Assembly: GCA_938042355.1 (NCBI GenBank)
Contig: CALIRD010000133.1
Coordinates: 1-50,652 of the forward strand
Direction: 5' to 3'
DNA length: 50,652 nt
Source of the DNA: an uncultured Thiotrichales bacterium
Lineage (GTDB): Bacteria; Pseudomonadota; Gammaproteobacteria; CAZUMV01
In this document: positions 1,614 through 46,082 of the stretch, in pieces
Layout: each line of letters begins with the position of its first letter
Numbering within the stretch: the stretch's first letter is position 1
The notes under the pieces: generated by a model
What the model was told of the DNA's origin: nothing
Database searches by the model: none
Seen by the model: only the letters and a program-made list of their open reading frames with translations
Program-made: the position numbers and the translations under genes

Positions 1614-1745
1614 TTTTAATGTTGCTCTGGGGCTGATTCGAAAGAGTGAAAAAGGATACACAAAATATTAAAAAACATCCATGGCTGTTTTTATTTATAG
1701 ATAAACGGTGTGCTTCTAATGTGCAGCTACTATCAGCTTTCGGGG

Positions 1746-11152: not shown

Positions 11153-11446
11153 AGTTTGTTCGCAATTTTTAGCTTTTGATTCAAATAGCTTACCTCAATA
11201 CAGATGCAATAGGGTTGTTACGATAACGGATCAAAATACGTTTTCACCTACCGAAAACCACCATAAACACAGTCTGTATAGACGTTGGAATATACTTCTG
11301 GTTTTATAGACAGTTTAGAAACACTTAACTTGTCTTGTGCCTTTTTCAGTGAAACAATGATCCGGTAGCGAGTGAGTTGTGTGAATGCGTGACAAAAGTA
11401 TCACTTGCACGAACGACTGCCCATCAACACCGTGGATACCAGCTTA

Positions 11447-12601: not shown

Positions 12602-13566
12602 TGGACGCCTTGATTGCAGATACGGCAAAACGCATCTATGCCGACCACGCCGATGATACAACCGCTCTATGGCAAGCGCTTGAAGACAATGGCTTAAGTC
12701 GCGCCTGGGTTCCGGATGAGCTAGGTGGTACCGGGCTTGAGTTGTCGGATGGTTTTGCGCTGATCCGCCAGAGTGCGGGTGAACAAGCCAGCGTACCATT
12801 CGCAGAAACACTCATGGCTGGCTACCTGCTTGCAACCGCGGGGGCAGAAATGCCTGATGGTCAAATTACCATCGCCAGCTCCAGACAATATTCCGCAACT
12901 GAAGTGCCGTTCGCAGACCGTGCCGATCATGTTTTACGCCTGCAGCAAAACCAGATTCAATTGTTTAAAGTAGAAAATGCACAAATTATTTCTCATGTCG
13001 GTTCTGACCCGGTGGCCACTATCGATTTCGCACCACTCACTCCTGTGTCGAGTCACAAGGCTGCGGCATGGCTTACACCTGAAATCTACCAACAACTGGG
13101 GGCTGTCATTCGAACTGCGCAGTTGTGTGGCACGATGCAATACCAACTGGAATTAACCCTCGAACATACTTCAACACGTGAACAGTTTGGCCGTCCGCTG
13201 ACTAAATTTCAGGCGATCCAGCATCTGCTGGCAGAAATGGCAGGCGAGCTGGCAACCAGTAGCGCAGCGCTGGAAGGCGCAATCCAAAGCTTTAGTTTGG
13301 ATGCAGCACCGGACGCCATAGCCGTTGCCTGTGCCAAAGCACGCGCCAGCGAAGCGGCGGATATTGTCTCCCGGCATGCACATCAAGCGCACGGTGCGAT
13401 TGGCTATACCGGTGAATATTCTTTAGGCCGATTCAGTCGTCGCTTGTGGCAATGGCGCGAAGACTTTGGCAATGAGTTTTATTGGGGTAAACAGTTGGGC
13501 GAACAATTTTCACGCACCAGCTCAGGTGGATTAACTGAAGATATTTTTGGAGAGGTCAATGGCTAG
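12601..13566 (+). CDS. Acyl-CoA dehydrogenase-family protein, shorter partner subunit
   Basis: Its ATG overlaps the upstream TAA (TAATG). 321 aa. ACAD C-terminal helical-domain similarity (REQFGRPLTKFQAIQHLLAEMA, HQAHGAIGYTGEY). No GGTxEI-type catalytic Glu segment is evident. Confidence 0.8.
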   Translation: MDALIADTAKRIYADHADDTTALWQALEDNGLSRAWVPDELGGTGLELSDGFALIRQSAGEQASVPFAETLMAGYLLATAGAEMPDGQITIASSRQYSATEVPFADRADHVLRLQQNQIQLFKVENAQIISHVGSDPVATIDFAPLTPVSSHKAAAWLTPEIYQQLGAVIRTAQLCGTMQYQLELTLEHTSTREQFGRPLTKFQAIQHLLAEMAGELATSSAALEGAIQSFSLDAAPDAIAVACAKARASEAADIVSRHAHQAHGAIGYTGEYSLGRFSRRLWQWREDFGNEFYWGKQLGEQFSRTSSGGLTEDIFGEVNG

Positions 13567-14359: not shown

Positions 14360-17300
14360 TTACCTGGTACTGGCTATATCCACTGAATATAAAGACTGCC
14401 GCAAGGCTTCAAGATCAGACAGCAGTACAGTCATTACTTCAAAATCAACATCTTTGACCTTGAGTGCATCCAGCGTATCTAAAAAGCGCTGCAATGCACT
14501 TTTGTTCGAATCTTTCCAGGCACGCAACAGCTCCCTCGCAGTGGTATCACCCATGGTGACAATGTCAGCACAAATCAGAGCGTGGGTGCGCATCAATCGC
14601 GTTTTTAAACCATGTTGAGCAATCAAGTGCCAATGGTTTTCAACCTTCAATCCATCGATGATTTGTGAAAGCTGATAGAGTTTCAACTCGCCGGTAATCG
14701 CATAGTAAACCTCGGTCACAGGTGCGACTTCTGCTTCTTTATTGGTAGCGACATCAGCCACATCAAGCGCATGGGGCAACAAGCGCATCGTTGCAGCCTG
14801 CTGAAGTAATGATGCCGGAACTTTATATCGTTTCAATTGCTGCAGGCGTTTGGCATGGTACTGCTTTGCCTTACCCGAGAGTGATTTGACAATCATGGCT
14901 TGATAGATTTCCAGTACCGGTCTGATCGAAGCAATGTTGGTCAGGATATCCAGTGGTTGTGGGCGATAATACAGAAGCCAGATAGTGGCTTCCTGAATGG
15001 TCTTGATAGCATCTCGATACAGGGAAGCCTGAACCCCAACCGGTACGATATTATCCAGCGCAGATACCTGCTCCCAGTAGTCATCCAGATCAAACAATGA
15101 CCAGGCGCAGGTAAACGCTGCAATAATATTGGCATAACTATGGCCTGTCATTTCAGCAATCCGAAAAACAAAAATTGGGCCACAGCGATTGATAACCTTG
15201 TTGACCAACTCGGTCGCCACAATCTCTTGGCGTAAGCGATGATCTACAATCTCGGGACGATACTTTTTTATCAGAACTTTGGGGAAGTAAGCTTCAATCA
15301 CCCGACGTGCAAACGGGTCATCCGGCAAATCTGACGCCAGTACTTTCTCATAGCACTGGATTTTACTGTACGCCAAAATTACAGCCAGCTCGGGCCAACA
15401 TAAAGGTAATCCTTGTTGATACCGATCTTCTAATTCTTCACGCGTCGCCAGACCTTCAAGCTCACGCTTCATCACTCCCTGCTGTTCAAGCACATCGATA
15501 AATCGCGCATGCTCACGAATTCGTTGACCCGCCTGACGCTGCTCCAGGTTTAGCGCCAAACTTTGTTGATAGTTATCATCAAGCACCAACTCCGCCACCT
15601 CTTCGGTCATAGTCGCCAACAGCTTGTTGCGCTGCTTCTCCTTTAGCTGACCTTTTTCCCTGACGGCATTCAATAAAATTTTAATATTGACTTCATGATC
15701 CGAAGTATCCACACCTGCTGAATTATCAATGAAATCGGTATAACAGCGGCCACCGTTTTGAGCGAATTCTATTCGCCCTGCCTGAGTAGCTCCCAAATTA
15801 CCCCCCTCACCAAGAACTCTGCATCTGAGCTCTTTTCCATCTACCCGCACAGCATCATTAGCGCGGTCTTTAGCATCCATGTGACTTTCAGAACCGGACT
15901 TGATGTAGGTGCCTATACCGCCATTCCAAAGTAAATCTACCGGCGCTTTCAATAACCGATGAATTAATTCATTCGGTGTCAGTTCTGAAGCACTGATACC
16001 TAACGCTGCTTTCGCTTCAACAGACAGTTTGATCGATTTTGCTGAACGTTCGTAAACTCCTCCGCCTTTTGAAATTAATTGGTTGTTGTAGTCTGTCCAC
16101 GCAGACTTCGGCTTGTTGAACAGGCGCTGCCGTTCTCGAAACGATTTTTCCGGATTTGGATCGGGATCAATAAAAATATGCATGTGATTAAACGCAGCAA
16201 GCAACTGTATTTGTCGAGATAACAACATGCCATTGCCAAATACATCGCCTGCCATATCGCCTATACCTACAGTAGTAAACGGCTGTTTTTGGATATCATG
16301 CTCAAGCTCAAGAAAATGACGCTTGACCGATTCCCAGGCACCACGCGCAGTAATACCCATCGCCTTGTGGTCATAACCCACCGATCCACCCGAAGCAAAG
16401 GCGTCTCCCAACCAGAATTTGTATTTTTTAGCGACCGCGTTGGCAATATCTGAAAACGTTGCTGTACCTTTGTCTGCCGCAACCACCAGATATGGATCAT
16501 CGCCATCGCGACGCACTACACCTTTTGGTGGTATGACGTCATTTCCAACCAGATTATCTGTCACATCCAGCAAACCCGATATAAATGTTTTATAACAAGC
16601 AATACCTTCACGCAAGAATGCTGCTCGCCCTCCCTTTTGTGGTGGCTGCTTCACATAAAAACCACCTTTCGATCCAGTCGGCACAATCACGGTATTTTTT
16701 ACCATCTGGGCTTTGACCAGACCCAACACTTCGGTTCTAAAATCTTCAGGTCGATCTGACCAACGCAAACCACCCCGGGCAACCCGACCACCTCGTAAGT
16801 GTACGCCCTCCACACGAGGCGAATAGACAAAAATCTCATACAAGGGTTTAGGTTCTGGCATGCCATCAATCGCATTGGAGTCAAACTTGAATGCGACATA
16901 CTCTTTGGCATCGCCTTTTGCATCGGGCTGATAATAATTGGTCCGCAATGTGCACTCAACCAGATTCAGGTAATGACGCAGAATACGATCATGATCAAGA
17001 TTCACAACCGTATCAATAGCCGCAAGTATTTCTGTGCGTAGCTCGCTGGCCTGATCTTCCCGCTGGTGATTTTCTTGCGGGTCAAACAACAACCTGAAAC
17101 AATCTATAATCAGGCGCGCGATGTGAGCATGCTCAAGCAAACAATCCACCACATAGCTTTCACTGTAACGCAGACCTAACTGTCGCAGGTAACGACTATA
17201 GGCTCGCAAAATCACGACCTCGCGCCAATTCAGTCCCGCAGCAACTATCAGCTTATTGAAACTATCGTTCTCTGCCTCACCACGCCATACACTCATGAAA

Positions 17301-19165
17301 GCTTCTTGAAAGTCTTCAGCCACCTCGGCTGGCTTTACTTTGACACCTGTTCCGCTTTGCAAATGAAACTCATGTACCCATGCCTTGTTATCCCCGCCTA
17401 ATTCAAGCCGGTAAGGTCGATCAGACATCACACGTAACCCCAGGTTTTCAATTACTGGCAATGCTTGTGAAGGTGCAATCGCTTCGCCCAGGGCAAATAA
17501 CTTCATCCGCACGTTACGACGCCCGCCCCCCGGGCTTTGATAGAGTTGTACACGCACTTTATTATTTTTATTGAGTAACTCGAACTGCATTGCATCAAGC
17601 ACACCAGAGCGCGCAGAGAAATCTGACTGATAACCCGGTCTGAAGGCATTGCCGTAACGGACCGCTAATTTACGACCCTTGTTTTCACCCAACTCATTTA
17701 CAAACTCTTCAGTAATGATGTCTTGCCAGGTTTTGGCAGCCTGCTGCAAACGTCGCTCAAGATCTGGTGTTGAAATTTTTTGTTTGCTTCCCTGCTTGAC
17801 CCTGACAATAAACTGAACCCGCGCCAGCACAGAGTGTGAAAAATAGGTTTGCGCCTGAATAGATTGACCCCGTAAGGCATCCATTAGCACTGCTTCAATG
17901 CGCTTGCGCAAATCGCGGTTATAGGTATTTCTGGGTATATAAACCAGACAGGTATAGAAACGGCTATAACGATCCTTGTTCATGAAAAAACGAACCTGCT
18001 TTCGTTCCTGCATGCTCAAAATGCCATGTGTTATTTCTTGCAGCTCAGCATTATCAATGGCAAATAAATTATCGCGCGGATAATTTTCAATAATATCGAT
18101 CAAGGTTTTGTAATCGTGTGAGCGTTTCGGCAAGTTACTTTGCTCCAGAACAAACTTTGCCTTTTTACTCACCAAGGGGATTTTCAATACACTCTTGTTA
18201 TAGGCGGTGGAGGTAAACAAACCCAGAAAACAATCTTGTCCAACAATCTTTCCTTGTTTGTTGTAACGATTTATACCAAGAAAGTCGAAATAACCAGCAC
18301 GATGAAGATGAGAACGTTGATTGGACTTCGCTACCACCAGGGTTTCTTCGCTATCGAGCAAGCCGGCGGTACCGCCTGGCAAATAGTCTTCATGCCCTTG
18401 ACGTAATAATCCCAAACCCGAGCCACGGGTATAATTCAGTGATTGGCGGTCGTTACTGAGTGAATCTTTGCAATAGCCGAGAAAAATAAAATTATCATCT
18501 TGCAGCCATTTGATAAAACGTGATGTTTCAGCAAGCCCACTAATGCCTTTCGTTCTCTTTAGCTCTGTACTGATCTGATCAAGCTGTTTAACTATTGGCT
18601 GCCAATCTTCACAACACGTTGCCACATCTTTCAGGACGGCACGCACCTCTTTAACGATACGATCCTGTCTTCTGCCAACACCGGACTTGTCCAGTTCAAA
18701 ATGCATTAACGATAAATGTGTGAAGCCTTTGCGCGCACGCTTGCCTGACACTATATCGACAACCTTGCCTTGTCTATTGCGCTTCACCGCCACCACGGGA
18801 TGTATCACCAAGCGAATATCCTGATTCAGGTCATTCAATTTCATAGTTACTGAATCGAGCAGAAAGGGGTTATCAGGGACCACTATCCGAAGAATAGAAA
18901 TATCACAAGCCAGTGGTGAGTGATAGAGATCCACTTTCGTTTGCTCTGGCTTGGAAGCGAGAACAACCCGTAGATGGCTTAAAACCTTACCAAGCAACTG
19001 GTCATCACTAATCGTCTCCAGCTCCTCGGGGGAGAGCAGATCAAAATACAATTCTGAAAAACGTTCAAATAGTGGCCGGTCTATTTTTGCTGCTGCCACC
19101 TCATCGATAACGACGCTACTGTTTAGTAAGCGTTTGATTCGATCATCTTGCCGATCCTTAGGCAT
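14360..19165 (-). CDS. gdhB: NAD-specific glutamate dehydrogenase, large (~180 kDa) GdhB type
   Basis: About 1600 aa. The central catalytic core (VPTGSKGGFY, GPDMGT-equivalent region, GIGDMAGDVFGNGML) is typical of the bacterial large NAD-GDH family. Start set to ATG 19165, which has AGGGA 7 nt upstream. Confidence 0.9.
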   Translation of the reverse strand: MPKDRQDDRIKRLLNSSVVIDEVAAAKIDRPLFERFSELYFDLLSPEELETISDDQLLGKVLSHLRVVLASKPEQTKVDLYHSPLACDISILRIVVPDNPFLLDSVTMKLNDLNQDIRLVIHPVVAVKRNRQGKVVDIVSGKRARKGFTHLSLMHFELDKSGVGRRQDRIVKEVRAVLKDVATCCEDWQPIVKQLDQISTELKRTKGISGLAETSRFIKWLQDDNFIFLGYCKDSLSNDRQSLNYTRGSGLGLLRQGHEDYLPGGTAGLLDSEETLVVAKSNQRSHLHRAGYFDFLGINRYNKQGKIVGQDCFLGLFTSTAYNKSVLKIPLVSKKAKFVLEQSNLPKRSHDYKTLIDIIENYPRDNLFAIDNAELQEITHGILSMQERKQVRFFMNKDRYSRFYTCLVYIPRNTYNRDLRKRIEAVLMDALRGQSIQAQTYFSHSVLARVQFIVRVKQGSKQKISTPDLERRLQQAAKTWQDIITEEFVNELGENKGRKLAVRYGNAFRPGYQSDFSARSGVLDAMQFELLNKNNKVRVQLYQSPGGGRRNVRMKLFALGEAIAPSQALPVIENLGLRVMSDRPYRLELGGDNKAWVHEFHLQSGTGVKVKPAEVAEDFQEAFMSVWRGEAENDSFNKLIVAAGLNWREVVILRAYSRYLRQLGLRYSESYVVDCLLEHAHIARLIIDCFRLLFDPQENHQREDQASELRTEILAAIDTVVNLDHDRILRHYLNLVECTLRTNYYQPDAKGDAKEYVAFKFDSNAIDGMPEPKPLYEIFVYSPRVEGVHLRGGRVARGGLRWSDRPEDFRTEVLGLVKAQMVKNTVIVPTGSKGGFYVKQPPQKGGRAAFLREGIACYKTFISGLLDVTDNLVGNDVIPPKGVVRRDGDDPYLVVAADKGTATFSDIANAVAKKYKFWLGDAFASGGSVGYDHKAMGITARGAWESVKRHFLELEHDIQKQPFTTVGIGDMAGDVFGNGMLLSRQIQLLAAFNHMHIFIDPDPNPEKSFRERQRLFNKPKSAWTDYNNQLISKGGGVYERSAKSIKLSVEAKAALGISASELTPNELIHRLLKAPVDLLWNGGIGTYIKSGSESHMDAKDRANDAVRVDGKELRCRVLGEGGNLGATQAGRIEFAQNGGRCYTDFIDNSAGVDTSDHEVNIKILLNAVREKGQLKEKQRNKLLATMTEEVAELVLDDNYQQSLALNLEQRQAGQRIREHARFIDVLEQQGVMKRELEGLATREELEDRYQQGLPLCWPELAVILAYSKIQCYEKVLASDLPDDPFARRVIEAYFPKVLIKKYRPEIVDHRLRQEIVATELVNKVINRCGPIFVFRIAEMTGHSYANIIAAFTCAWSLFDLDDYWEQVSALDNIVPVGVQASLYRDAIKTIQEATIWLLYYRPQPLDILTNIASIRPVLEIYQAMIVKSLSGKAKQYHAKRLQQLKRYKVPASLLQQAATMRLLPHALDVADVATNKEAEVAPVTEVYYAITGELKLYQLSQIIDGLKVENHWHLIAQHGLKTRLMRTHALICADIVTMGDTTARELLRAWKDSNKSALQRFLDTLDALKVKDVDFEVMTVLLSDLEALRQSLYSVDIASTR

Positions 19166-19555
19166 TGGCTGATCCCTGAGATACACATTTAGAAGTGTGG
19201 ATTATAGTCTTTTAAACACTAGTGACAATCGACGTTGACAGCATTGTCGAACCACCTCACATTTGCTCTTACTTTCGTGAAATGTTGCATCAAACAGATA
19301 AAATTCGAAATTATCAATGGGAGGAGGATGTATCAGAAACAGTTACATTTGATTCAATCCTTTCAAGCAATACTAAATTGCGCTGACTCAGACTTCGAAT
19401 CAATAAAGAAATTGTTATTTTGATAAATATCAATTGGTATAAGTTCTCATAATTACTCCAGACTTGAAAATTAAAACCCGGCAAAAATTCATTGCGCTAC
19501 TCATTAGATGTGAATTGCATTAGACTGCTTCAGCAAAAATAAAGAACCTACTCTC

Positions 19556-35363: not shown

Positions 35364-36740
35364 TTGCCAATTAACACAAACAATCAGACAAAGCAGAACT
35401 TAATCTCTAAAGACCGTGCCTATGTCTGGCACCACTTGACTCAACATAGTGCCTTCGACAATAGCGATCCACTGATCATTGTCGAGGCTGAAGGCATGCA
35501 GCTTAAAGATGCGCATGGCAATATTATCCTTGATGCAACTTCGGGTGGATTGTGGACCGTCAACGTTGGCTATGGACGAGAACAAATTGCCAAAGCAATT
35601 GCCAAACAACTCACATCAATGCCGTTTTTTGCTGGTTATGGTGGCACTAAACCAGGCGCAGAATATGCCGAAGCATTACTAAAAAGAATGCCTGGGATGG
35701 GCCGTGTTTACTTTTCCAGCTCGGGCTCTGAAGCAAATGAAAAAGCATTCAAAATTGTCAGACAACTTTCGCACAAAAAATACGCTGGTAAAAAAAACAA
35801 AATAATTTACCGCGAGCGTGACTACCACGGCACGACCATCGCGACACTAAGTGCAACCGGGCAATTTGAGCGCAAAAACCAATATGGACCTTTTGTCCCT
35901 GACTTTGTCGAGATGCCACATTGCTGTGAATATCGTTGCCAGTATGAAGACAGCGATAACTATGGCGTTGATTCAGCCAATGAACTCAAAAAAATTATCT
36001 TAAAGGAGGGTGAAGAAAATATAGGCGCCGTGATTCTGGAACCGATAACAGCCGGTGGTGGCATTATTCCTGCACCGGATGGTTACTGGCAACGAATTCA
36101 ATCCATTTGCAGACAATACAATGTGCTACTGATTATTGATGAGGTGGTCTGTGGCTTGGGGCGTACGGGCAAGTGGTTTGGCTATCAGCACTATGATATA
36201 GAACCAGACATTGTCACTATGGCTAAAGGAGTTGCATCAGGCTATGCCGCCATTTCATGCACTGTGACTACTGAAGCCATCTTCGAAGAATTCAAGCAGG
36301 GAAACTCAAAACGTATGGATTACTTCCGGGACGTGTCAACTTTTGGAGGCTGCACGGCTGGTCCGACAGCTGCCCTACAATGCCTGAGAATACTGGAAGA
36401 AGAAAAACTGTTAGAGAATGCCAGCACGATTGGAGACTACCTAATGACTCGTTTGGTAGAGCTAAAAAGTAAACACGAGATCATTGGCGATGTCCGAGGC
36501 AAGGGACTACTGGCTGGACTTGAGCTGGTTGAAGATCGTCAAAGCAAAACACCAGTTGATGAATCCGTCATCATAAAAGTAGCGGCTCACTGTTTGAAAA
36601 ATGGAGTGTTGATTGGACGAACCAATCGCAGTTTTAAAGAATTCAATAATACCATTGCTTTATGCCCTGCATTGATTGCTACTACGCAAGACATCGATAT
36701 AATTGTTGCTGCAATAGATACAGCCATCAGCGAACTATAA
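35364..36740 (+). CDS. tpa: Class-III (omega) aminotransferase; likely taurine--pyruvate aminotransferase, based on linkage to xsc
   Basis: PLP-enzyme motifs: SGSEANEKAFK, DYHGTT, LLIIDEVVCGLGRTGKWFG, and MAKG (PLP Lys). TTG start with GGGAGA 7 nt upstream. Lies directly upstream of xsc. Confidence 0.7.
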   Translation: MPINTNNQTKQNLISKDRAYVWHHLTQHSAFDNSDPLIIVEAEGMQLKDAHGNIILDATSGGLWTVNVGYGREQIAKAIAKQLTSMPFFAGYGGTKPGAEYAEALLKRMPGMGRVYFSSSGSEANEKAFKIVRQLSHKKYAGKKNKIIYRERDYHGTTIATLSATGQFERKNQYGPFVPDFVEMPHCCEYRCQYEDSDNYGVDSANELKKIILKEGEENIGAVILEPITAGGGIIPAPDGYWQRIQSICRQYNVLLIIDEVVCGLGRTGKWFGYQHYDIEPDIVTMAKGVASGYAAISCTVTTEAIFEEFKQGNSKRMDYFRDVSTFGGCTAGPTAALQCLRILEEEKLLENASTIGDYLMTRLVELKSKHEIIGDVRGKGLLAGLELVEDRQSKTPVDESVIIKVAAHCLKNGVLIGRTNRSFKEFNNTIALCPALIATTQDIDIIVAAIDTAISEL

Positions 36741-36764
36741 AAATCTTTCTGGAGTATAACTATA

Positions 36765-38534
36765 GTGAAAATGACCACTGAAGAAGCGTTTGTCAAAGTC
36801 TTGCAAATGCATGGAATTGAACACGCTTTTGGCATTATTGGTTCGGCGATGATGCCGGTATCTGATCTATTTCCTGCCGCGGGTATCACTTTCTGGGATA
36901 CCGCACATGAGAATACGGCAGGTATGTCAGCTGACGGCTATAGCCGTGCTTCGGGAAAGATGTCAATGGCAATTGCGCAAAATGGCCCTGGCATCACAAA
37001 CTTCGTCACAGCCATTGCCAGCGCTTACTGGAATCATACACCGCTCTTGTTGGTGACCCCGCAAGCTGCTAATAAGACCATCGGGCAAGGCGGTTTTCAA
37101 GAAGTGCCCCAGATGAATTTCTTCAAAGATGTCGTTTGCTATCAGGAGGAAGTCAAAGATCCAACGAGGATGGCAGAAGTTCTGGATCGGGTCATTGCCA
37201 TGGCACGCAAGCGTTCTGCTCCGGCGCAAATTAATGTACCACGCGATTTCTGGACACAAGTAATTGATATAAAACTGCCATTACCAGTTGAATTCGAACC
37301 ATTGTCCGGTGGCGAACAAGCGATACAAACGGCGGCTGCATTATTATCCGATGCAAAATTCCCTGTCATGCTTAACGGCGGTGGAGTGGTCATTGGTGAT
37401 GCGATTGATGCCTCGAAGAAACTTGCTGAAAAACTCGATGCACCCGTTTGTTGTGGTTATCAGCATAACGATGCCTTTCCGGGCAAGCACCCCTTACACG
37501 TTGGTGCCCTTGGCTACAACGGCTCGAAAGCTGCAATGCAATTGATTGCTGAAGCTGATGTGGTACTCGCTCTGGGTACACGCCTTAATCCATTCTCTAC
37601 CCTGCCCGGCTATGGGCTTGACTATTGGCCCAGCAACGCAAAAATCATACAGGTAGATATCAATGCCGACCGCATAGGGCTGACCAAACCGGTCACTGTT
37701 GGTATTCGAGGCGATGCCGGACGTGTTGCCGAGCAAATTCTCGAAGCGTTATCTGACACTGCTGGAGATACAAACAGAGAAGTGCGTAGAGAAACCATCG
37801 CATCAACCAAAGCCAGATGGGCTGAAGAACTAGAGACCATGGATCATGAAGATGATGATGATGGCACCAACTGGAATGAGCGCGCTCGTGAGGACCATCC
37901 AGATCGCATGTCAGCCAGACAAGCATGGCGCGCCATTCAAAAAGCTCTACCTGACACTGCAATAATTTCTACCGATATCGGTAATAATTGCGCCATTGGT
38001 AATGCCTACCCATCCTTCGAAAGTGGCCGTCAATACCTGGCACCTGGCATGTTTGGCTCTTGCGGCTATGGCTTTCCCGCTATCCTCGGCGCGAAAATTG
38101 GTAGACCGGATCGGCCCGTAGTTGGCTTTGCTGGTGACGGCGCCTTTGGTATTTCCATGAATGAAATGACCGCTTGTGGTCGAGATGAATGGCCCGCCAT
38201 TACGATGGTGATCTTTCGTAATTATCAATGGGGTGCCGAGAAGCGTAACAACACCCTCTGGTTTGACGACAACTTCGTTGGCACCGAACTCGACACTGAC
38301 GTGAACTATGCCGAGATTGCCAAAGCCTGTGGTGTGAATGGTATACAAGTCAACACACCTGAAGAACTTACCAGCGAGCTGGACAGAGCTATTGCTGCAC
38401 AAATGAGTAATGGTGAAACCACTTTCCTTGAAGTGGTATTGAATCAGGAACTGGGCGAACCATTCCGTCGTGATGCAATGACTACACCGGTCGTGGTTGC
38501 AGGAATAAATCGTGAAGATATGAAGCCCCAATAA
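36765..38534 (+). CDS. xsc: Sulfoacetaldehyde acetyltransferase (ThDP-dependent)
   Basis: The N-terminus MKMTTEEAFVKVLQMHGIEHAFGIIGSA and later blocks (YWNHTPLLLVTPQAANKTIGQGGFQE, APVCCGYQHNDAFPG, LNPFSTLPGYG.DYWP) match Xsc proteins as recalled. ThDP motif GDGAF...N. Confidence 0.88.
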   Translation: MKMTTEEAFVKVLQMHGIEHAFGIIGSAMMPVSDLFPAAGITFWDTAHENTAGMSADGYSRASGKMSMAIAQNGPGITNFVTAIASAYWNHTPLLLVTPQAANKTIGQGGFQEVPQMNFFKDVVCYQEEVKDPTRMAEVLDRVIAMARKRSAPAQINVPRDFWTQVIDIKLPLPVEFEPLSGGEQAIQTAAALLSDAKFPVMLNGGGVVIGDAIDASKKLAEKLDAPVCCGYQHNDAFPGKHPLHVGALGYNGSKAAMQLIAEADVVLALGTRLNPFSTLPGYGLDYWPSNAKIIQVDINADRIGLTKPVTVGIRGDAGRVAEQILEALSDTAGDTNREVRRETIASTKARWAEELETMDHEDDDDGTNWNERAREDHPDRMSARQAWRAIQKALPDTAIISTDIGNNCAIGNAYPSFESGRQYLAPGMFGSCGYGFPAILGAKIGRPDRPVVGFAGDGAFGISMNEMTACGRDEWPAITMVIFRNYQWGAEKRNNTLWFDDNFVGTELDTDVNYAEIAKACGVNGIQVNTPEELTSELDRAIAAQMSNGETTFLEVVLNQELGEPFRRDAMTTPVVVAGINREDMKPQ

Positions 38535-38642: not shown

Positions 38643-39689
38643 TTACCGGCGAGCTCGCCATTGCATGAAACCACTCAATAACCAAAAAGAAAGTGACAAG
38701 CCTATTACGGTCATGATCAAACCCCCTGTACGTCCCAACACATATCCCGTATGAACAGGGTATAGCCACCCCCTCAATCGACTTGCCTCATATACTCCAG
38801 ATGCGTAGATACTGGCCTCAGCAGTGTTTGGATCTATTAACACATCAGTCCGCCTCAAACGGGCATCAGTAAACGCGAACCAGTATTGTGCGGCATGCTC
38901 TCCCGCGTTTGAAAAGGCAGCTAAATGTTGATCACCGACAACACGGCTGGCAATCATATACGCAGTCGTCAGATCTATGTCTATTTGTTCTGGCGCACCA
39001 CCACGCATCGCAGCGAGCATATTTGTGGAAACCACACTCCTTCCATTTTCTTTCTCTTGCCAGATGGTGAGGTTTAATATCAACCCGGTACTGGCGGCAA
39101 CCAGCAATAATGGAGCGATCAATATACCTGTGCTTCGATGGTATTTTTTTACTCCTGAATAATGCATCGCAGACTTCCGTGTAATACGCCAATTCACAAT
39201 AGCTGTGATAAGAAAAGCTATACTCAAGAGAGCAAAAATACTAAGTACAATTCGACCCGGAACGCCATAGTTAGTCCATTTATGCAAACTGATTACCCGA
39301 CCCACCCAACCGACTGATGAATCTCTTTCAGCGATTACACTACCCTGATATTGATCAACAGTAACAATACGAGACATATCAAGACCAACGGGCTTGCGCC
39401 CACCCATGACTATCACCGCAGTCTTTGGCGAATTGGCTGCAGGGTACATAACATGTGCGGGTTTGAATTCTGGCTTATTCGCTTTAATCACTTCCAGAAT
39501 TTGAGCTGGTCCAAGCGCCTGGTTGGCAAACCTGTCAACGGCATAGATTTCCGGTTCGCTAAAACCCAGTAATGCGAAACGTTGTTGAGCCACAGCACCA
39601 GTGATTCCCTGAAAACAGATGAATAAACCGGTCAAAATGGCCAATCTTCGATGCCAGCGACGCCATAACTTTTGACTATTCAAGAGCAT
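38643..39689 (-). CDS. PepSY-associated TM-helix (PiuB-like) membrane protein
   Basis: N-terminus LWRRWHRRLAILTGLF, periplasmic loops, and C-terminal LHTG-type segment (WLYPVHTGYVLG) are typical of PepSY_TM proteins. Confidence 0.75.
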   Translation of the reverse strand: MLLNSQKLWRRWHRRLAILTGLFICFQGITGAVAQQRFALLGFSEPEIYAVDRFANQALGPAQILEVIKANKPEFKPAHVMYPAANSPKTAVIVMGGRKPVGLDMSRIVTVDQYQGSVIAERDSSVGWVGRVISLHKWTNYGVPGRIVLSIFALLSIAFLITAIVNWRITRKSAMHYSGVKKYHRSTGILIAPLLLVAASTGLILNLTIWQEKENGRSVVSTNMLAAMRGGAPEQIDIDLTTAYMIASRVVGDQHLAAFSNAGEHAAQYWFAFTDARLRRTDVLIDPNTAEASIYASGVYEASRLRGWLYPVHTGYVLGRTGGLIMTVIGLSLSFWLLSGFMQWRARR

Positions 39690-39831
39690 ATCTCTTTCGG
39701 TCTTTCATTCAACATCACTGTTTTGGGCTCAAGATAAGGAAGCAATCCCTTCAATCCTCCTTCACGACCGAGACCTGATTGAGCAAAGCCGCCAAAGGCA
39801 ATCGCAAAACTTGCTTTAGTGCCATTTTGAC
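39597..39831. repeat. Direct repeat copy A (ALDH-3'end / PepSY-5'end junction)
   Basis: Manual alignment to 44509-44743 at a constant offset of 4912 nt gives 6 mismatches in 235 nt. Confidence 0.9.
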
Positions 39832-39901
39832 AGAAGTACTGCTGATGATTGTCGAGACCAATGAAATGCAACTTAGAGATACCCAAGACAATTTTACTCA
39901 T
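39680..39901 (-). pseudogene. Remnant of an aldehyde dehydrogenase 3' end, fused to 25 unrelated codons (chimeric 73-codon ORF)
   Basis: Residues 26-68 (NGTKASFAIAFGGFAQSGLGREGGLKGLLPYLEPKTVMLNERP) equal the last 43 aa of the intact ALDH at 44607-46082, with one substitution. The TAA stop is mutated to AAA, so the ORF runs 10 nt into the PepSY gene. Confidence 0.85.
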
Positions 39902-39976: not shown

Positions 39977-40915
39977 CTACATATTCAAACGCCTGATATC
40001 CTCAAGTAAATTCTTCAAGCACACCAGAAAACGTGCACCATCAGCACCGTTAATGATTCTATGATCAAAACCGAGTGTCAGGGTCAGCATTCTTCGCTCA
40101 ACCCATTCGCCGTCAATTAGCCTGGGAATTTGGTCGCTAGCGGCAACACCAACGATTGCTGCTTGGGGCCAATTAACTATAGGAAAAATTGAACTCAGAC
40201 CTATACCACCCAGGTTTGAAAGCGTAATTCCCGCTCCTTGAAAATCTTGTGGTAACAATTTTCGTTGTCTGGATCGATCACTGAGATTTTTCAGATCCTG
40301 CGATAATTCAACCAGATTCTTTGAGTCTACACCTCGTAAGGCAGGAACCATCAGTCCGTGCTCAGTATCTACCGCGACACCAATGTCTATATAATTTTTA
40401 TATATAATGACGTTATTTTCCTCATCCAACGAACTGTTCATTTTCGGAAAACTTTTGATGCCAACCGCCATCGCTTTGACAATTAATGCGGTAATGGTCA
40501 AATGAATATTATTTTGAGTTTTCAAAGACTGACGCCATTCTTCCAGATCAGTGATATCTACTTTTTCTTGTAGCCAGGCATGTGGAATTTCTTTCCATGC
40601 ACGACTCATATTGACACTGGTCGCCAGACCGATACCGGTCAGAGGTTCAGACCAACTCTCACGATTATTTACTTCTTGCTTGGCTCCGCTTTCATAGTGC
40701 TGTGAAGAGACAGACATTGTAAGTATTGAGGCTTCACGTGTATCGCCACTGCTATGCATATCAGTACGCAACAATGATTTAGCATATGCCTTGACGTCAT
40801 TAACAGAGACTCTAGCACCGGCATGTGCGGTAGCGACAGTGGCTATATCCACACCAAGTTCTCTAGCAAGACGTCGACTTGCCGGTCCGGCAGGTACATG
40901 CACTTCATCATTCAT
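39977..40915 (-). CDS. 2-oxoacid dehydrogenase E2 acyltransferase core lacking a lipoyl domain
   Basis: 312 aa. Begins directly with the peripheral subunit-binding domain (PAGPASRRLARELGVDIATV...VSVNDV), then a linker and the catalytic domain (SNLGGIG, DHRIINGADGARFL). No lipoyl-Lys motif. The ATG lies 3 nt after the E1 stop. Confidence 0.88.
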   Translation of the reverse strand: MNDEVHVPAGPASRRLARELGVDIATVATAHAGARVSVNDVKAYAKSLLRTDMHSSGDTREASILTMSVSSQHYESGAKQEVNNRESWSEPLTGIGLATSVNMSRAWKEIPHAWLQEKVDITDLEEWRQSLKTQNNIHLTITALIVKAMAVGIKSFPKMNSSLDEENNVIIYKNYIDIGVAVDTEHGLMVPALRGVDSKNLVELSQDLKNLSDRSRQRKLLPQDFQGAGITLSNLGGIGLSSIFPIVNWPQAAIVGVAASDQIPRLIDGEWVERRMLTLTLGFDHRIINGADGARFLVCLKNLLEDIRRLNM

Positions 40916-40918
40916 AAC

Positions 40919-43597
40919 TTAACTGGAGACCTCATTGAGTGATTCGGATTCAAACCTGCTTAGAGCCAGAATCTCTATTTGCTCAAGGTATGTTTGTTTA
41001 TCAATTTGTTTTTCCTGTAGTAAGGCAGAAATTGCTGCCTGCGCTATAAAGTCTGTGCTGATTTCAAAGAAATCTCTAAGATTTTCCCGGGACTCACTCA
41101 TACCATAGCCATCGGTTCCTAGCACCTCATAGCGACCAGGCAACCACTCTGTAATTGAGCCGGCCAAAGATTTCATCCAGTCGGTTGCAGCAATGAATAC
41201 TCCATTTTCATCTGCGAATAACTCGCTAACATAAGGAATGCGTCGCTCAGCAAGTGGATTAAGGCGATTACTGCGCTGACACTGTTGCGCATCTCGATAG
41301 AGTTCTGTAAAGCTGGTGATACTCCAGATATTGACGCAATAACCTAGTGCCTCCAGAATTTTATCTGCATCAAGCGCTTGTTGCATAATCGAACCACTCG
41401 ACAACAAGTTAATCACAGAGCCAGTTTTTAATGTCGAACGCTTGTAACAATACCCACCTTTTAGAATTTGCTCTGCTACAAGATCGCCTTCAGGGATTGC
41501 TGGCATTAGATAGTTTTCATTATAAACCGTGAGATAGTAAAAGACGTCTTCCTGATTGGTATACATACGACGGATACCATCGCGAATAACTATAGCCAGT
41601 TCATAACCAAACGCTGGATCGTAACTAACTAAATTCGGTACCGTAGTAGCCAAGACATGTGAATGACCATCCTGATGTTGTAAACCCTCACCATTAAGCG
41701 TAGTTCTACCCGCGGTACCACCGAGTAAAAAACCTTTGCACATCATGTCTCCACAACTCCAAATCATGTCACCAACCCGTTGGAAACCAAAAATAGAATA
41801 GAATATATAGAATGGAATCATCGGTATTCCATGTACCGCATAGGCGCTACCGGCCGCCATGAATGAAGCAATCGCGCCAGTCTCACAAATACCTTCCTGA
41901 AGAATTTGTCCTTGTTGTGATTCTTTGTACGGAGCAATAGTGTCCGCATCAACCGGCGTATAATTTTGTCCATTATGCGAATATATGCCGGAGACTCTGA
42001 ATAACCCATCCATACCGAAGGTTCGTGCCTCGTCAGGTACTATAGGCACAATATATTTTCCAATCTCCTTATCTCTTAGTAACTTGGACAATAAACGAAC
42101 TGTCACCATAGTGGTGGATATTTTACGGTCACCAGAGCCATTTAAAATATCACTGAAATCCTCAAGCGCCGGTGTTGTTATAGATGGGCAATCCACTTCA
42201 CGACTTGGTAAAAATCCACCCAATGCTTCACGCTGACCTAACAAGTACTGCATTTCAGGACTATCATCTGCTGGCCGATAAAACTCTGCCTTGGCCGCAG
42301 CTTCTTCAGTAATTGGAATACCATAGTCTTTGGCGAGTTGGATACGCTCATTAATGGTAAGATTTTTCTTTTGATGCGCCGTGTTTTTTCCTTGCGCTAC
42401 CGCGCCCATACCATCTCCTTTAACGGTCTTGCACAAGATCACAGTCGGTTTATTTTTTTCCAGTACAGCCCTAGCGTACGCAGCGAAAATTTTCTTGGGA
42501 TCCTGACCGCCACGTTTAATTGCTTGTAATTCAATATCTGTGAGAGAATTCATCATCCGCTCAAGTTCAGGATTGCCTTCTACCCAATGCTCACGTTGAA
42601 CTTCACCCGGTAGTATCGAGTAGCGTTGATAGTCACCATCCAGACAATTATCCATACGCTGTTGTAGCACCCCATTCACATCTTGCTCCAGTAAGACGTC
42701 CCAGCCGGAACCCCAAATCACCTTGATTACATTCCAGTCAGCACCACGAAAAGAACGTTCAAGCTCTTGAATGACTTTACCATTACCACGTACCGGGCCA
42801 TCGAGTCGCTGTAAATTGCAGTTAACTACGAGCACCAAATTGTCCAGATTTTCTCTGGATGCAATATTTATAGTACCCAGAACTTCTGGTTCATCAGCTT
42901 CTCCATCACCAATGAAACACCAGTATTTTCCACCTTTGTCTTCAATGAGTTGTCGGTTTATCAGGTATTTGGTAAATCGCGCATGATAGATTGCGGCTGG
43001 CGTCGATAAACCCATCGATGCATTTGGCATTTGCCAAAAACTAGGCAAAGAGCGAGGGTGTGGATAAGAAGACAACCCGCCACCCTTGCCAAGCTCACGC
43101 CGGTAGTTTAGTAGCTGTTGTTTTGAGAGACGCCCTTCCAGAAATGCACGCGCATAAATCCCGGGTGCGGCATGCGGTTGTGGCATGACAATATCACCAG
43201 CATGCCTATCAGTGGATGCCTTGAAAATATGATTAAAGCCAACTTCGAGGATAGTTGCAGCGGATGCATAAGTCGCAATATGCCCACCCACACCTGTACC
43301 TGTATCCTGAGCTTGCAGCACCATCGCCATTGCATTCCATCGAATTAGATTCTCTACCTTCTTCTCAATCTCAATATCACCTGGATAAACTGGCTGTCGG
43401 TTGAGAGGTATTGAATTGATGTAGGGAGTATTCAGTGTCGCTTCACTAATTGACAATCCATCAGAAATTAGATGATCGTGGAGGTTCTTGAGTAACTCGC
43501 GCGCAGCATCATCACCAAATTCAGAACGAATGTAATCGATTGACTCACGCCATTCTTTCTTGTCTTCCTCAAGTTCACTAATACTGACTGCTGACAT
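40919..43597 (-). CDS. aceE: Pyruvate/2-oxoacid dehydrogenase E1 component, homodimeric AceE type
   Basis: 892 aa, collinear with E. coli AceE as recalled (GGHIATYASAATI, GLSSYPHP, IGDGEADEPE, NCNLQRLDGPVRGNGK, GRTTLNGEGLQHQDGHSH, LGTDGYGMSESRENLR). GGAG lies 9 nt upstream of the ATG. Confidence 0.92.
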   Translation of the reverse strand: MSAVSISELEEDKKEWRESIDYIRSEFGDDAARELLKNLHDHLISDGLSISEATLNTPYINSIPLNRQPVYPGDIEIEKKVENLIRWNAMAMVLQAQDTGTGVGGHIATYASAATILEVGFNHIFKASTDRHAGDIVMPQPHAAPGIYARAFLEGRLSKQQLLNYRRELGKGGGLSSYPHPRSLPSFWQMPNASMGLSTPAAIYHARFTKYLINRQLIEDKGGKYWCFIGDGEADEPEVLGTINIASRENLDNLVLVVNCNLQRLDGPVRGNGKVIQELERSFRGADWNVIKVIWGSGWDVLLEQDVNGVLQQRMDNCLDGDYQRYSILPGEVQREHWVEGNPELERMMNSLTDIELQAIKRGGQDPKKIFAAYARAVLEKNKPTVILCKTVKGDGMGAVAQGKNTAHQKKNLTINERIQLAKDYGIPITEEAAAKAEFYRPADDSPEMQYLLGQREALGGFLPSREVDCPSITTPALEDFSDILNGSGDRKISTTMVTVRLLSKLLRDKEIGKYIVPIVPDEARTFGMDGLFRVSGIYSHNGQNYTPVDADTIAPYKESQQGQILQEGICETGAIASFMAAGSAYAVHGIPMIPFYIFYSIFGFQRVGDMIWSCGDMMCKGFLLGGTAGRTTLNGEGLQHQDGHSHVLATTVPNLVSYDPAFGYELAIVIRDGIRRMYTNQEDVFYYLTVYNENYLMPAIPEGDLVAEQILKGGYCYKRSTLKTGSVINLLSSGSIMQQALDADKILEALGYCVNIWSITSFTELYRDAQQCQRSNRLNPLAERRIPYVSELFADENGVFIAATDWMKSLAGSITEWLPGRYEVLGTDGYGMSESRENLRDFFEISTDFIAQAAISALLQEKQIDKQTYLEQIEILALSRFESESLNEVSS

Positions 43598-43781
43598 TTA
43601 GCTACTCCGCTTTTCAGGGTTACAGATATACGGTACCAATTTAAGAAGAATCTGGCTTGCGTATAGATGCTTAAGAAACACAAATATTAGTAATTTATGC
43701 CGTATATTTAAAATATTTAGCAATTTAATTTCAAAATATGCGATATTGTTGTTCAAGATTCAGAAGGACTTAATGCACAAT

Positions 43782-44264
43782 ATGCCTAAACTAAAACTTG
43801 ACCGTATCGATGCCAAGCTACTGACACTGATCCAGGCCAATGGCAGAATTTCTAATAACGAGCTGGCAGATAAAGTGGGGCTTTCACCTTCCCCCTGTTT
43901 ACGTCGCGTGCGATCACTTGAAAGCAGCGGCATTATTAAACGCTATGTCGGGATACTAGACCCGACTTTAGTCGGTCTAACTATTAATGGCTTTGTCACT
44001 GTCAGGCTAAAAAATCAGGGCCGTGAAGCATTAAAAGTCTTTGAAGATAAAATCAAAGCTTACCCTCAGGTTATGGAGTGTTACTTAATGACCGGCAATT
44101 CCGATTATCTGTTGCGTATTTCGGTTAAAGACCTTGGGAGTTATGAAAAATTTCTGATTGATAATATAACCACCATACCTGGTGTCGGAAACATAGAATC
44201 CAGCTTTTCTTTAAAGCAAGTTCTTTACCGAACTGAAATTCCTATCATTCCAGAACAAAATTAA
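43782..44264 (+). CDS. Lrp/AsnC-family transcriptional regulator, divergent from the E1-E2 pair
   Basis: LDRIDAKLLTLIQANGRISNNELADKVGLSPSPCLRRVRSLE (HTH_AsnC) plus a C-terminal RAM/AsnC_trans_reg domain. The start may instead be ATG 43773. Confidence 0.9.
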   Translation: MPKLKLDRIDAKLLTLIQANGRISNNELADKVGLSPSPCLRRVRSLESSGIIKRYVGILDPTLVGLTINGFVTVRLKNQGREALKVFEDKIKAYPQVMECYLMTGNSDYLLRISVKDLGSYEKFLIDNITTIPGVGNIESSFSLKQVLYRTEIPIIPEQN

Positions 44265-44284: not shown

Positions 44285-44601
44285 AGCCTTTTCTTGAAGT
44301 AGTAGGATTTCACTATCCAAAACTAAGCGAGACATATCCAAACCAGCTGGCTTGCGTCCACCCCTAACTATCACCACAGTCTTAGACGAACTGGATGCAG
44401 GCTCATAAGATCTGCGGGTTTAATTCTGGATTATACGCTTTAAGAACATCCAGTAATTGGGCTGGCTCAAATGCTTGGCAGGAATGCAAAAAGTTGTCGA
44501 GCAACGGTACCAGTGATTCCCTGAAAACAGATGAATAAACCGGTTAAAATGGCCAATCTTCGATGCCAGCGACGCCATAACTTTTGACTATTCAAGAGGA
44601 T
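44285..44601 (-). pseudogene. Degenerate copy of the 5' part of the PepSY-TM gene
   Basis: Alignable to 39310-39689. It is near-identical over the first ~90 nt of the gene, but ATG has become ATC. Beyond that it is visibly diverged, with a deletion of about 40 nt. No ORF of 60 codons or more remains. Confidence 0.8.
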
Positions 44602-44743
44602 ATCTCTTACGGTCTTTCATTCAACATCACTGTCTTGGGCTCAAGATAAGGAAGTAATCCCTTCAATCCTCCTTCACGACCGAGACCTGATTGACCAAAG
44701 CCGCCAAAGGCAATCGCAAAACTTGCTTTAGTGCCATTTTGAC
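44509..44743. repeat. Direct repeat copy B (ALDH-3'end / PepSY-5'end junction)
   Basis: See copy A. This copy retains the ALDH stop codon (TAA 44607-44609) but has lost the PepSY start codon. Confidence 0.9.
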
Positions 44744-46082
44744 CAAAAGTTCCGCTTCTGAATTGACGCGCAATTTCATACGCTTTGTGATTGTCGTTGG
44801 TGTAGACAGATCCATTTAATCCATACGGTGAGTCGTTGGCGATGCGAATAGCATCTGCTTCATCTGAGCACGGTATGACGCAAAGTACGGGACCGAATAT
44901 TTCTTCCTGGGCAATTGTCATGTTGTTATCAACATTCGCAAATACGGTTGGTTCAATGTAAAACCCTTGCGTTAGATGTGATGGACGCTTTCCACCGGTC
45001 GCCAACGCTGCTCCTTCTTCAATACCTTTTGCGATGTAACGTTCGATACGCTCAAGCTGTGACTTCGTGGTGATCGGCCCTAGCTGCGTTTTTGGATCAT
45101 ACGGCTCACCAACAATGATTTTTTCCATGGCTGCAACCAGATATTGAACAAACTCATCGTGACGACCACGAGAAACAATAATACGTGTGAGAGCAGCACA
45201 ATTCTGACCACTCATTACGGCTATACCGCTGGCCAGATCATCGGCGGCGGTTTGCAAGTCATAATCATCGAGTATGACAGCTGCTGATTTCCCGCCAAGC
45301 TCAAGCGTCACACGTGCAATTCGATCTGCACAAACCGAAGCAATATGTTGGCCGGTTGCCACACTGCCGGTGAAACTAACTTTGTCGATATGTGGATCGC
45401 GCACTAAATGATCCGAGGCATCTCGCTCGGCTGTAACGAGATTCAAAACGCCGGGGGGGAAACCCGACTCATCCGCACACTCAGCTAACAGATAAGCCTC
45501 GATCGGTGTTTGCGGTGCCGGCTTCATAATCACAGTACAGCCCGCCACCAAAGCGGGTCCGACTTTCGTCAGCATTGATGCCAGTGGCGCATTCCAGGGG
45601 GCAATTGCTGCCACCACACCTACCGGCTCATGAATCAGCATATTGCCGCTGTTTTCGGGAGGATGTTTTTCTATAAAGGAAAATGAAGTCGCTTGTTCAA
45701 TCGAACGATCAACGGCTGTGGCAGCATACTCAAGAGAATTATCTGACATCGATGTAATGACGCCGGTAGATTCGGTCCAGGCGGTTGCGAATTCCTTGCG
45801 TCGTCGTCGTAATGCCGTAGCAAAAACTTCCAGAATTTTTGCTCGCTCTAACGGCGTCATTCTTGCCCATGGACCGCTTTCAAATGCTTTATGAGCAGCA
45901 TCGACCGCCGCATCTACATCTTCAATGACCGCCTCGGCGACTTGAAAGACTACTTCCTCGGTAAATGGAGAGATGACATCAAGCAATCGATTGGTAGAGG
46001 GAACTACCCACTCGCCCCCGATATAGAGGTGTCGAAAATTGCTAGTGTCTAGTTCATGGGCTCGAGATGCTGTATGTGACAT
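44607..46082 (-). CDS. NAD(P)-dependent aldehyde dehydrogenase
   Basis: ALDH motifs: FTGSVATG, LELGGKSAAVIL (catalytic Glu), SGQNCAALTRIIV (catalytic Cys), EEIFGPV. ATG 46082 is preferred over TTG 46088. Confidence 0.92.
   Translation of the reverse strand: MSHTASRAHELDTSNFRHLYIGGEWVVPSTNRLLDVISPFTEEVVFQVAEAVIEDVDAAVDAAHKAFESGPWARMTPLERAKILEVFATALRRRRKEFATAWTESTGVITSMSDNSLEYAATAVDRSIEQATSFSFIEKHPPENSGNMLIHEPVGVVAAIAPWNAPLASMLTKVGPALVAGCTVIMKPAPQTPIEAYLLAECADESGFPPGVLNLVTAERDASDHLVRDPHIDKVSFTGSVATGQHIASVCADRIARVTLELGGKSAAVILDDYDLQTAADDLASGIAVMSGQNCAALTRIIVSRGRHDEFVQYLVAAMEKIIVGEPYDPKTQLGPITTKSQLERIERYIAKGIEEGAALATGGKRPSHLTQGFYIEPTVFANVDNNMTIAQEEIFGPVLCVIPCSDEADAIRIANDSPYGLNGSVYTNDNHKAYEIARQFRSGTFGQNGTKASFAIAFGGFGQSGLGREGGLKGLLPYLEPKTVMLNERP

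Follow-up and report, generated by a model that had tools for sequence, protein, structure and literature searches.

The 50,652-nt contig CALIRD010000133.1 of an uncultured Thiotrichales bacterium, referred to below as the window, carries the gene for an AceE-type 2-oxoacid dehydrogenase (E1) followed almost without a gap by the gene for an acyltransferase (E2) that has no lipoyl domain. 2-Oxoacid dehydrogenase complexes are the textbook case of substrate channelling by a covalent lipoyl arm on E2. The window protein is an E2p-type acyltransferase that lacks the lipoyl domain expected of the E2p family. Comparison with its relatives indicates that an in-frame deletion specific to this lineage produced it from an E2 with one lipoyl domain, and that at least five independent lipoyl deletions of a similar kind have occurred next to E1 genes. 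It is about an even call whether the two proteins form a functional pair that depends on lipoyl domains and a dihydrolipoamide dehydrogenase (E3, Lpd) supplied in trans. The locus comprises four features, given with the evidence on which each was assigned:

39977-40915, minus strand: E2 acyltransferase without a lipoyl domain, 312 aa (Pfam, Protein Data Bank [PDB] matches, AlphaFold2, Foldseek, lipoyl profile)
40919-43597, minus strand: AceE-type homodimeric E1 dependent on thiamine diphosphate (ThDP), 892 aa (TIGR00759, 1l8a alignment)
43598-43781: divergent intergenic region of 184 nt, the presumed promoter/operator of lrp and of E1-E2 (G+C content, tentative motif)
43782-44264, plus strand, divergent from E1-E2: Lrp/AsnC-family regulator, HTH_AsnC plus AsnC_trans_reg (Pfam)

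The E2 consists of a peripheral subunit-binding domain (PSBD; residues ~7-55), a disordered linker (~56-88), and a complete catalytic domain (89-311) with the sequence DHRIINGADG. This is the composition that the original prediction had read from the open reading frames, which also agree with it on the lengths of both proteins and on the junction between them. In the Pfam scan, 2-oxoacid_dh (PF00198) spans residues 89-310 with 246 bits and E3_binding (PF02817) covers residues 7-28 with 23.0 bits, slightly under its cutoff of 23.7; Biotin_lipoyl (PF00364) has no match in the protein. The PSBD arginines R14, R15, R18, and R35 are conserved in a family alignment of 48 sequences that includes the window E2, isolated PSBDs (1w4i, 1e-5; 2eq9) are among the PDB sequence matches, and the AlphaFold2 model places helices at residues 11-20 and 38-55 with predicted local distance difference test (pLDDT) values of 86-96. 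The overall pLDDT is 86.4, with residues 56-77 modeled as a disordered linker and the catalytic domain modeled confidently over residues 94-311, and all 29 invariant columns of the family alignment, including S233, H285, and N289, are present. By sequence the protein matches E. coli AceF in the PDB (5e-57), and in Foldseek its catalytic domain resembles the cubic-core E2p of E. coli and A. vinelandii at template-modeling scores of 0.86-0.88. The C-terminal DIRRLNM is close to the E. coli DIRRLVM that forms the inter-trimer knob. Measured against the E2p families NF008814 and TIGR01348, the protein shows the catalytic domain and PSBD of the family and misses the lipoyl domain with its lipoyl-lysine, and its scores stay below both equivalog cutoffs (274.2 vs. 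722 and 272.7 vs. 552.1).

A lipoyl domain hidden in another frame or displaced within the window was considered and rejected. A family-specific hidden Markov model of the lipoyl domain, built from 148 family members and run over six frames of the whole window, matched only an unrelated E2 at 393-1661, and it found no hidden or displaced lipoyl domain in the six frames of seven loci that encode such short E2s. The E1-E2 junction reads TAA GTT ATG, leaving a gap of 3 nt, and no upstream E2 start can add a domain because the E1 stop lies in frame 6 nt before the E2 ATG. The earlier reading of the protein as lipoyl-free has thus held up against both a profile search and the possibility of a longer start. 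As a separate observation, the in-frame position of the E1 TAA relative to the E2 ATG (40913-40921) means that readthrough would yield an E1-E2 fusion, which is probably coincidence.

In agreement with the original prediction, the lipoyl domain has not been fused to E1 either. Residues 13-874 of the E1 align with residues 13-871 of E. coli AceE (1l8a) at 910 bits, and because the two proteins are colinear the E1 carries no extra domain. Its score against the aceE family TIGR00759, 1178.6 bits over a cutoff of 859.9, places it within the AceE family, and it retains the ThDP motif GDG...NCN and residues equivalent to His407, Glu571, and His640 of E. coli AceE. In the E. coli enzyme, His407 serves the reductive acylation (acetylation) of the lipoyl domain. 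The E1s that stand beside short E2s are the same as those beside long E2s at the ThDP motif, the His407 loop, Glu571, and His640. These observations bear on the suggestion, made in the original prediction, of lipoate-independent chemistry, in which the E1 would serve for decarboxylation or carboligation, while the short E2 would transfer acyl groups to or from a non-lipoyl thiol. The one argument for it is the missing lipoyl domain, and it gained no support here: the E1s paired with short E2s are unchanged at the lipoyl-acylation residues, the E2 has the canonical DHRxxNG active site that all lipoyl-bearing relatives share, and the retained PSBD argues for a conventional complex. Such chemistry is highly improbable.

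The divergent arrangement of regulator, E1, and E2 recurs as a module in marine Gammaproteobacteria, for example in Aliiglaciecola sp. SL4 and in several gammaproteobacterial metagenome-assembled genomes (MAGs). Its members are 61-69% identical to the window in the regulator, 70-78% in E1, and 46-60% in E2, and a divergent regulator occupies the equivalent position at loci L003, L006, L009, L010, and L012 (61-69% identity). Outside the window, the module E2 is likewise tightly coupled to E1 and normally has one lipoyl domain. Nearly all of the best 120 E2 matches are 415-545 aa long and contain PF00364, and the closest homologue besides the window's own, from an Arenicella MAG, is a 457-aa protein of 60% identity that has the domain. 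Orthologous triads, to which the original prediction had pointed, therefore do exist as a conserved module, while the lipoyl-less E2 is not its ancestral design. The genes flanking the module vary between genomes, and the three-gene unit behaves as a mobile accessory element, apparently spread by horizontal transfer. None of the module members examined has an E3 gene, and because none does, even the lipoyl-bearing versions would already have been reliant on the host Lpd. The absence of a linked E3 had also been noted for the window itself, where none of the large open reading frames that were scanned matches the Pyr_redox family.

The origin of the lipoyl-less form becomes apparent when the short E2s are aligned pairwise, each with its nearest long relative. 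In-frame deletions have removed the lipoyl domain and linker and left the first 6-25 residues in place, and the PSBD is kept in every short E2. The window E2 reads MNDEVHVPA/GPASRR (a slash marking the breakpoint) where the Arenicella protein reads MEHTVLVPA/LNE...AKVPA/GPSSRR, so that about the first nine codons are retained. The other short E2s are given below, where "verified" denotes a complete short E2 directly after E1 (full-length in all cases except P0013):

P0062/P0086 clade: verified short E2 in the same triad of divergent lrp, E1, and E2, on contigs of 159-298 kb
P0019: verified short E2 on four contigs, which come from several samples; some 25 residues remain from the first lipoyl strands
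P0013: verified short E2, with E1 cut by the contig end; MKQSLIIP/ASPSTRR, against MNKILIIP/FLNE...TIIP/ASPSTRR in the nearest long relative
P0174: verified short E2 with a full-length E1 upstream
P0074: short E2 keeping exactly MSETLRLPD; its long sister (P0077) is 88% identical

The breakpoints sit in the similar hPA/hP motifs that open the lipoyl domain and the PSBD, and for this reason suggest microhomology-mediated deletion. In a tree of catalytic domains the short E2s are scattered among the long ones, which is why the losses appear independent. The variant is rare yet recurrent: the best 150 cluster representatives drawn from 1.84 billion proteins include three confirmed or likely short E2s and two or three uncertain ones. 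Several candidates were discarded along the way. The contig-edge fragments P0186, P0129, P0251, L134, L148, L160, and L186 are gene-calling artefacts, and the 340-aa Planctomycetaceae E2 of L141 (5300-6950) is the product of a frameshift in the linker, with the lipoyl domain just upstream in another frame. The L141 case counsels caution about short-E2 counts in long-read MAGs. P0074 was likewise set aside: at its locus (L096), about 930 nt of E1 are gone and a segment is replaced in comparison with the long-E2 locus L100, and the locus is probably decayed or misassembled. Among the neighbours of the P0062/P0086 loci (L002-L006), the large subunit of a xanthine-dehydrogenase-family molybdoenzyme and a ThiS-like small protein follow the short-E2 module; an old yellow enzyme/FAD oxidoreductase precedes it in L006 and lies further upstream, with Rieske oxygenase genes, in L002-L004.

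Within the P0062/P0086 clade, the only short-E2 clade to offer two diverged members, loci L002 and L006 (74% identity) give ratios of nonsynonymous to synonymous substitution rates (dN/dS) of 0.14 for E2, 0.04 for E1, and 0.02 for the regulator, at dS values of ~1.1-1.5 (1.1 for E2). The E2 of this clade has been under purifying selection since the deletion. The P0074/P0077 pair was dropped from this analysis, since the E1 of L096 also has large deletions. For the window E2, a dN/dS estimate is not feasible because the nearest relative is 60% identical and dS is saturated. Two indirect tests were used in its place, a regression of E2 on E1 divergence and the compliance of the protein with conserved positions. 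The identity of its catalytic domain to eight lipoyl-bearing orthologues is as E1 predicts (mean residual +0.85, standard deviation 2.9), and the protein agrees with the family at 67 of the 71 positions whose conservation is 90% or higher, which ranks it 14th from the bottom among the 48 sequences and within the normal range. By these measures neither the window E2 nor its E1 shows any apparent sign of decay. The original prediction had entertained a lineage-specific truncation under relaxed selection; its first half is borne out by the lipoyl domains of the orthologues, whereas the dN/dS, regression, and conservation results speak against the second.

A functional pair that relies on lipoyl domains and E3 in trans would work as follows. 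The local Lrp/AsnC regulator would control a translationally coupled AceE-type E1 and E2p-type acyltransferase, the latter having lost its single lipoyl domain and linker through an in-frame deletion that spared the start codon, some nine codons, the PSBD, and the catalytic domain. The E1 would decarboxylate a 2-oxoacid, likeliest 2-oxobutyrate and possibly also pyruvate or 4-methylthio-2-oxobutanoate, and would then reductively acylate the lipoyl domain of another E2, most probably the housekeeping AceF. That domain would be reached in trans, either because the two E2s assemble into mixed cubic cores or because separate complexes associate. The short E2 would move the acyl group from the borrowed dihydrolipoyl arm to CoA while its PSBD docks E1 and/or E3, and the housekeeping Lpd would re-oxidize the arm. 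Mixed cores are structurally plausible because the catalytic domain and C-terminal knob are of the same cubic-core type as in E2p, and the retention of the PSBD by every short E2 suggests that it still docks E1 and/or E3. Borrowing of a lipoyl domain in trans, proposed in the original prediction, is still the most plausible account, given the residues kept in both E1 and E2 and the lack of an E3.

Several observations nonetheless weigh against this reading. In the P0062/P0086 clade, the divergence of the catalytic domains exceeds the E1-based prediction by 7-9 identity points. The window lineage consists of a single contig whose next best relative is at 60% identity, and a recent deletion would appear equally well conserved. 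Neither the AceF nor the Lpd of the host's housekeeping complex is encoded in the window. Genuine short E2s amount to about 1 in ~150 of the GTDB species-representative loci listed (two samples), a rough frequency, and the P0074 locus, where a like deletion is paired with a large deletion in E1, indicates that such events can accompany decay. Most of these points, together with the lipoyl domain present in all of the closest orthologues and an insertion site that has undergone rearrangement and duplication and contains decaying remnants, would fit a non-functional relic, in which the deletion inactivated the complex and the genes are intact only because the event was recent and pseudogenization lies ahead. 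We nevertheless judge the relic unlikely. The locus retains 3.6 kb of uninterrupted coding sequence with every invariant residue present, the E2 is not excessively diverged relative to its E1, and the deletion is in frame with the start and the coupling to E1 preserved. Moreover, at least four other independent short E2s stand beside a full-length E1, a fifth (P0013) having its E1 cut by the contig, and one short-E2 clade maintains its low dN/dS across sequences of 74% identity.

Should the pair be functional, the question arises of which protein lends the lipoyl arm. A donor other than AceF could be the E2 at 393-1661 or an E3 with an N-terminal lipoyl domain, of the type present in Neisseria and Cupriavidus. 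The E2 at 393-1661 is the sole lipoyl-bearing product of the window and lacks an adjacent E1, and in M. hyopneumoniae the E3, PdhD, bears the lipoyl domain that the E2 lacks (PMC7873978). In spite of these parallels a dedicated donor is improbable. The 393-1661 gene lies 38 kb away in a conserved FAA-hydrolase/thiolase/APH cluster, which in a relative is accompanied by leucine-catabolism genes; the lrp-E1-E2 cassette is seemingly a later insertion; and no E3 is linked to any module. Nothing links the 393-1661 protein to the pair, and its nomination as a donor in the original prediction is not upheld.

The reading in which AceF is the lender has its best mechanistic analogue in Actinobacteria. 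The lipoyl-less succinyltransferase domain of C. glutamicum OdhA uses the lipoyl groups of AceF in a hybrid complex (PMC10581250). Like the window E2, OdhA/Kgd presents an acyltransferase without a lipoyl domain, and OdhA shares its E3. In OdhA, however, the acyltransferase is fused N-terminally to E1o and has no PSBD, while the window E2 is a separate protein that keeps its PSBD and is paired with an AceE-type E1; the pair scores 93 bits against the OdhA/Kgd family NF008907, whose cutoff is 878, and is not fused. The lipoyl-less architecture described here also differs from that of OdhA in having come about, it appears, through recent and recurrent deletions in Proteobacteria. It is conceivable, if somewhat doubtful, that lipoyl-less E2s constitute recurrent "satellite" modules of Gram-negative bacteria that plug an alternative E1 and a matching acyltransferase into the housekeeping pyruvate dehydrogenase (PDH) and draw on its lipoyl arms and E3 by way of mixed cores. 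With the same reserve, such modules might be a convergent proteobacterial counterpart of the actinobacterial hybrid supercomplex of PDH and 2-oxoglutarate dehydrogenase, generated by repeated precise deletion of a domain.

The E1 of the window pair is colinear with AceE, and its gene is adjacent to and coupled with that of the E2, as in E. coli aceE-aceF. In PSBD and catalytic domain the E2 comes closest to AceF and the A. vinelandii E2p, down to the Asn in DHRxxNG and the C-terminal knob. E. coli AceF has three lipoyl domains, however, the family relatives have one, and the window E2 has none. Whereas the canonical PDH operon is controlled by PdhR and serves housekeeping, the window pair is part of an accessory inserted cassette with a divergent Lrp-type regulator and no linked lpd. 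The PdhC of M. hyopneumoniae is a natural E2 of ~306 aa that consists of PSBD and catalytic domain only (PMC7873978, citing Matic 2003). In domain content this mollicute protein resembles the window E2, which aligns with its family model NF008815 (308 positions) over 5-301; the score of 195 against a cutoff of 378 nevertheless leaves the window E2 outside that family. Mollicute PdhC also works with a heterotetrameric E1 and with a neighbouring E3 that bears the lipoyl domain, whereas no E3 is linked to the window pair. Literature phrase searches for a natural lipoyl-less E2 next to an AceE-type E1 returned only OdhA, mollicute PdhC, and engineered truncations.

Clues to the substrate come from the neighbours of related modules. 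In Arenicella, the module adjoins the gene of another AsnC regulator, which is transcribed divergently from a methionine gamma-lyase gene whose product scores above both methionine gamma-lyase equivalog cutoffs (for NF005695, 676.6 vs. 666). At L102 and L010, acnD, prpF (above cutoff), and a gene for a prpE-like ligase lie directly ahead of the regulator gene. In a sponge-associated short-E2 lineage, the downstream gene has as its best match a 3-(methylthio)propionyl-CoA ligase, below cutoff, and close by is an acyl-CoA dehydrogenase with an Acyl-CoA_dh_C domain that may, judging by its domain make-up, be DmdC-like. Precedent is offered by the mdeR/mdeAB genes of P. putida, which couple an Lrp-family regulator with the AceE-like MdeB (PMC8707732 and its ref. 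8; PMC10256816). As described there, MdeB is an AceE-like E1 that depends on other complex components. On the same accounts, mdeR-mdeAB and bkdR-bkd both have a divergent Lrp/AsnC activator controlling a 2-oxoacid dehydrogenase component, as the window does, and the mde operon contains a methionine gamma-lyase, as adjoins the Arenicella module; the window locus is without one and brings its own E2. Because of these neighbours and this precedent, the substrate may tentatively be sought among methionine- or threonine-derived 2-oxoacids, with the conversion of 2-oxobutyrate to propionyl-CoA as the leading candidate, a proposal that we rate a little short of even. The hints derive from relatives, however: no methionine gamma-lyase was found among the scanned window open reading frames, and the neighbours in the window are taurine genes placed alongside by insertion.

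The regulator itself is consistent with a local function. The longest open reading frame begins with TTG at 43746, and because homologues align from its residue 13, translation probably begins at the ATG at 43782. Its score falls below the cutoff of the equivalog for the global regulator Lrp (121 vs. 233), and it shares with regulators of the BkdR/MdeR type the combination of HTH_AsnC and AsnC_trans_reg and a position divergent from the target operon. The spacer at 43598-43781 has a G+C content of 30.4%, compared with 45.6% for the window, in agreement with the AT-rich region described originally. Spacers between lrp and E1 from the window, L003, L006, L009, and L010 align poorly and contain a weak pattern, TGCTAAAT...(~30 nt)...TAGCAAT, that is partly an inverted repeat and might tentatively be regarded as a candidate operator of the regulator. 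A scan of the spacer for promoters and terminators, including sigma-70 promoters, yielded nothing above shuffled expectation. The Lrp-controlled promoter postulated in this spacer is plausible in view of the conserved divergent arrangement and the weak motif, although the sigma-70 scan lends it no help.

If natural E2s that have repeatedly shed their arm are indeed still being selected for, the sharing of lipoyl domains and E3 in hybrid complexes would extend beyond Actinobacteria, and accessory modules would be able to dispense with the lipoyl domain. With just two genes plus the host AceF and Lpd, the locus makes a simple system in which to test the co-assembly of heterologous E2s and the use of lipoyl arms by foreign active sites in vivo. 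It would also help in annotating the many marine AceE/AceF paralogues, which are probably amino-acid-induced dehydrogenases of the 2-oxobutyrate type in place of second PDHs. If the locus is instead a dead relic, what remains is only a neat recurrent deletion at one domain boundary.

The cassette is bracketed by direct repeats of ~475 nt, which are 81% identical over 475 columns and 95% identical in a 265-nt core (blastn):

39370-39843, repeat copy A: remnant of the 3' end of an aldehyde dehydrogenase (ALDH) gene (39690-39843, a C-terminal remnant on translation) and the functional 5' end of a PepSY_TM gene
44328-44756, repeat copy B: functional 3' end of the ALDH gene (44607-44756) and a frameshifted, start-less remnant of the PepSY_TM 5' end (44328-44606)

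In a related Thiotrichales MAG (L015; ALDH 86% and Xsc 94% identical), ALDH is followed directly by Xsc, with neither a PepSY_TM gene nor the cassette between them. The G+C content is 42.9% in the cassette, 48.7% in ALDH, and 49.5% in Xsc. This pattern fits a Campbell-type integration of circular DNA carrying a homologous segment, and on that account the proximity of the taurine genes would be accidental. Those genes, a class-III aminotransferase followed by Xsc (TIGR03457, 915.7 vs. 676), lie at 35364-38534 on the plus strand and represent taurine/sulfoacetaldehyde catabolism at the insertion site.

Elsewhere in the window, the E2 at 393-1661 (minus strand) has a lipoyl domain, a PSBD, and a catalytic domain and no adjoining E1; it sits in a cluster of FAA-hydrolase, thiolase, APH-kinase, and E2 genes 38 kb from the pair. 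In a relative (L107, 89% identical), the same order of FAA hydrolase, thiolase, APH, and E2 is followed by a convergent short-chain dehydrogenase/reductase gene, a MerR gene, and leucine-catabolism (liu) genes. At 11405-13566 (plus strand), two overlapping open reading frames both match acyl-CoA dehydrogenase domains; the first has N, M, and part of C, and the second has C. They represent either a single gene that is split or two neighbouring genes, with a start that extends too far. Finally, 14360-19186 (minus strand) encodes a large NAD-specific glutamate dehydrogenase of 1608 aa with ACT and helical-motif domains.

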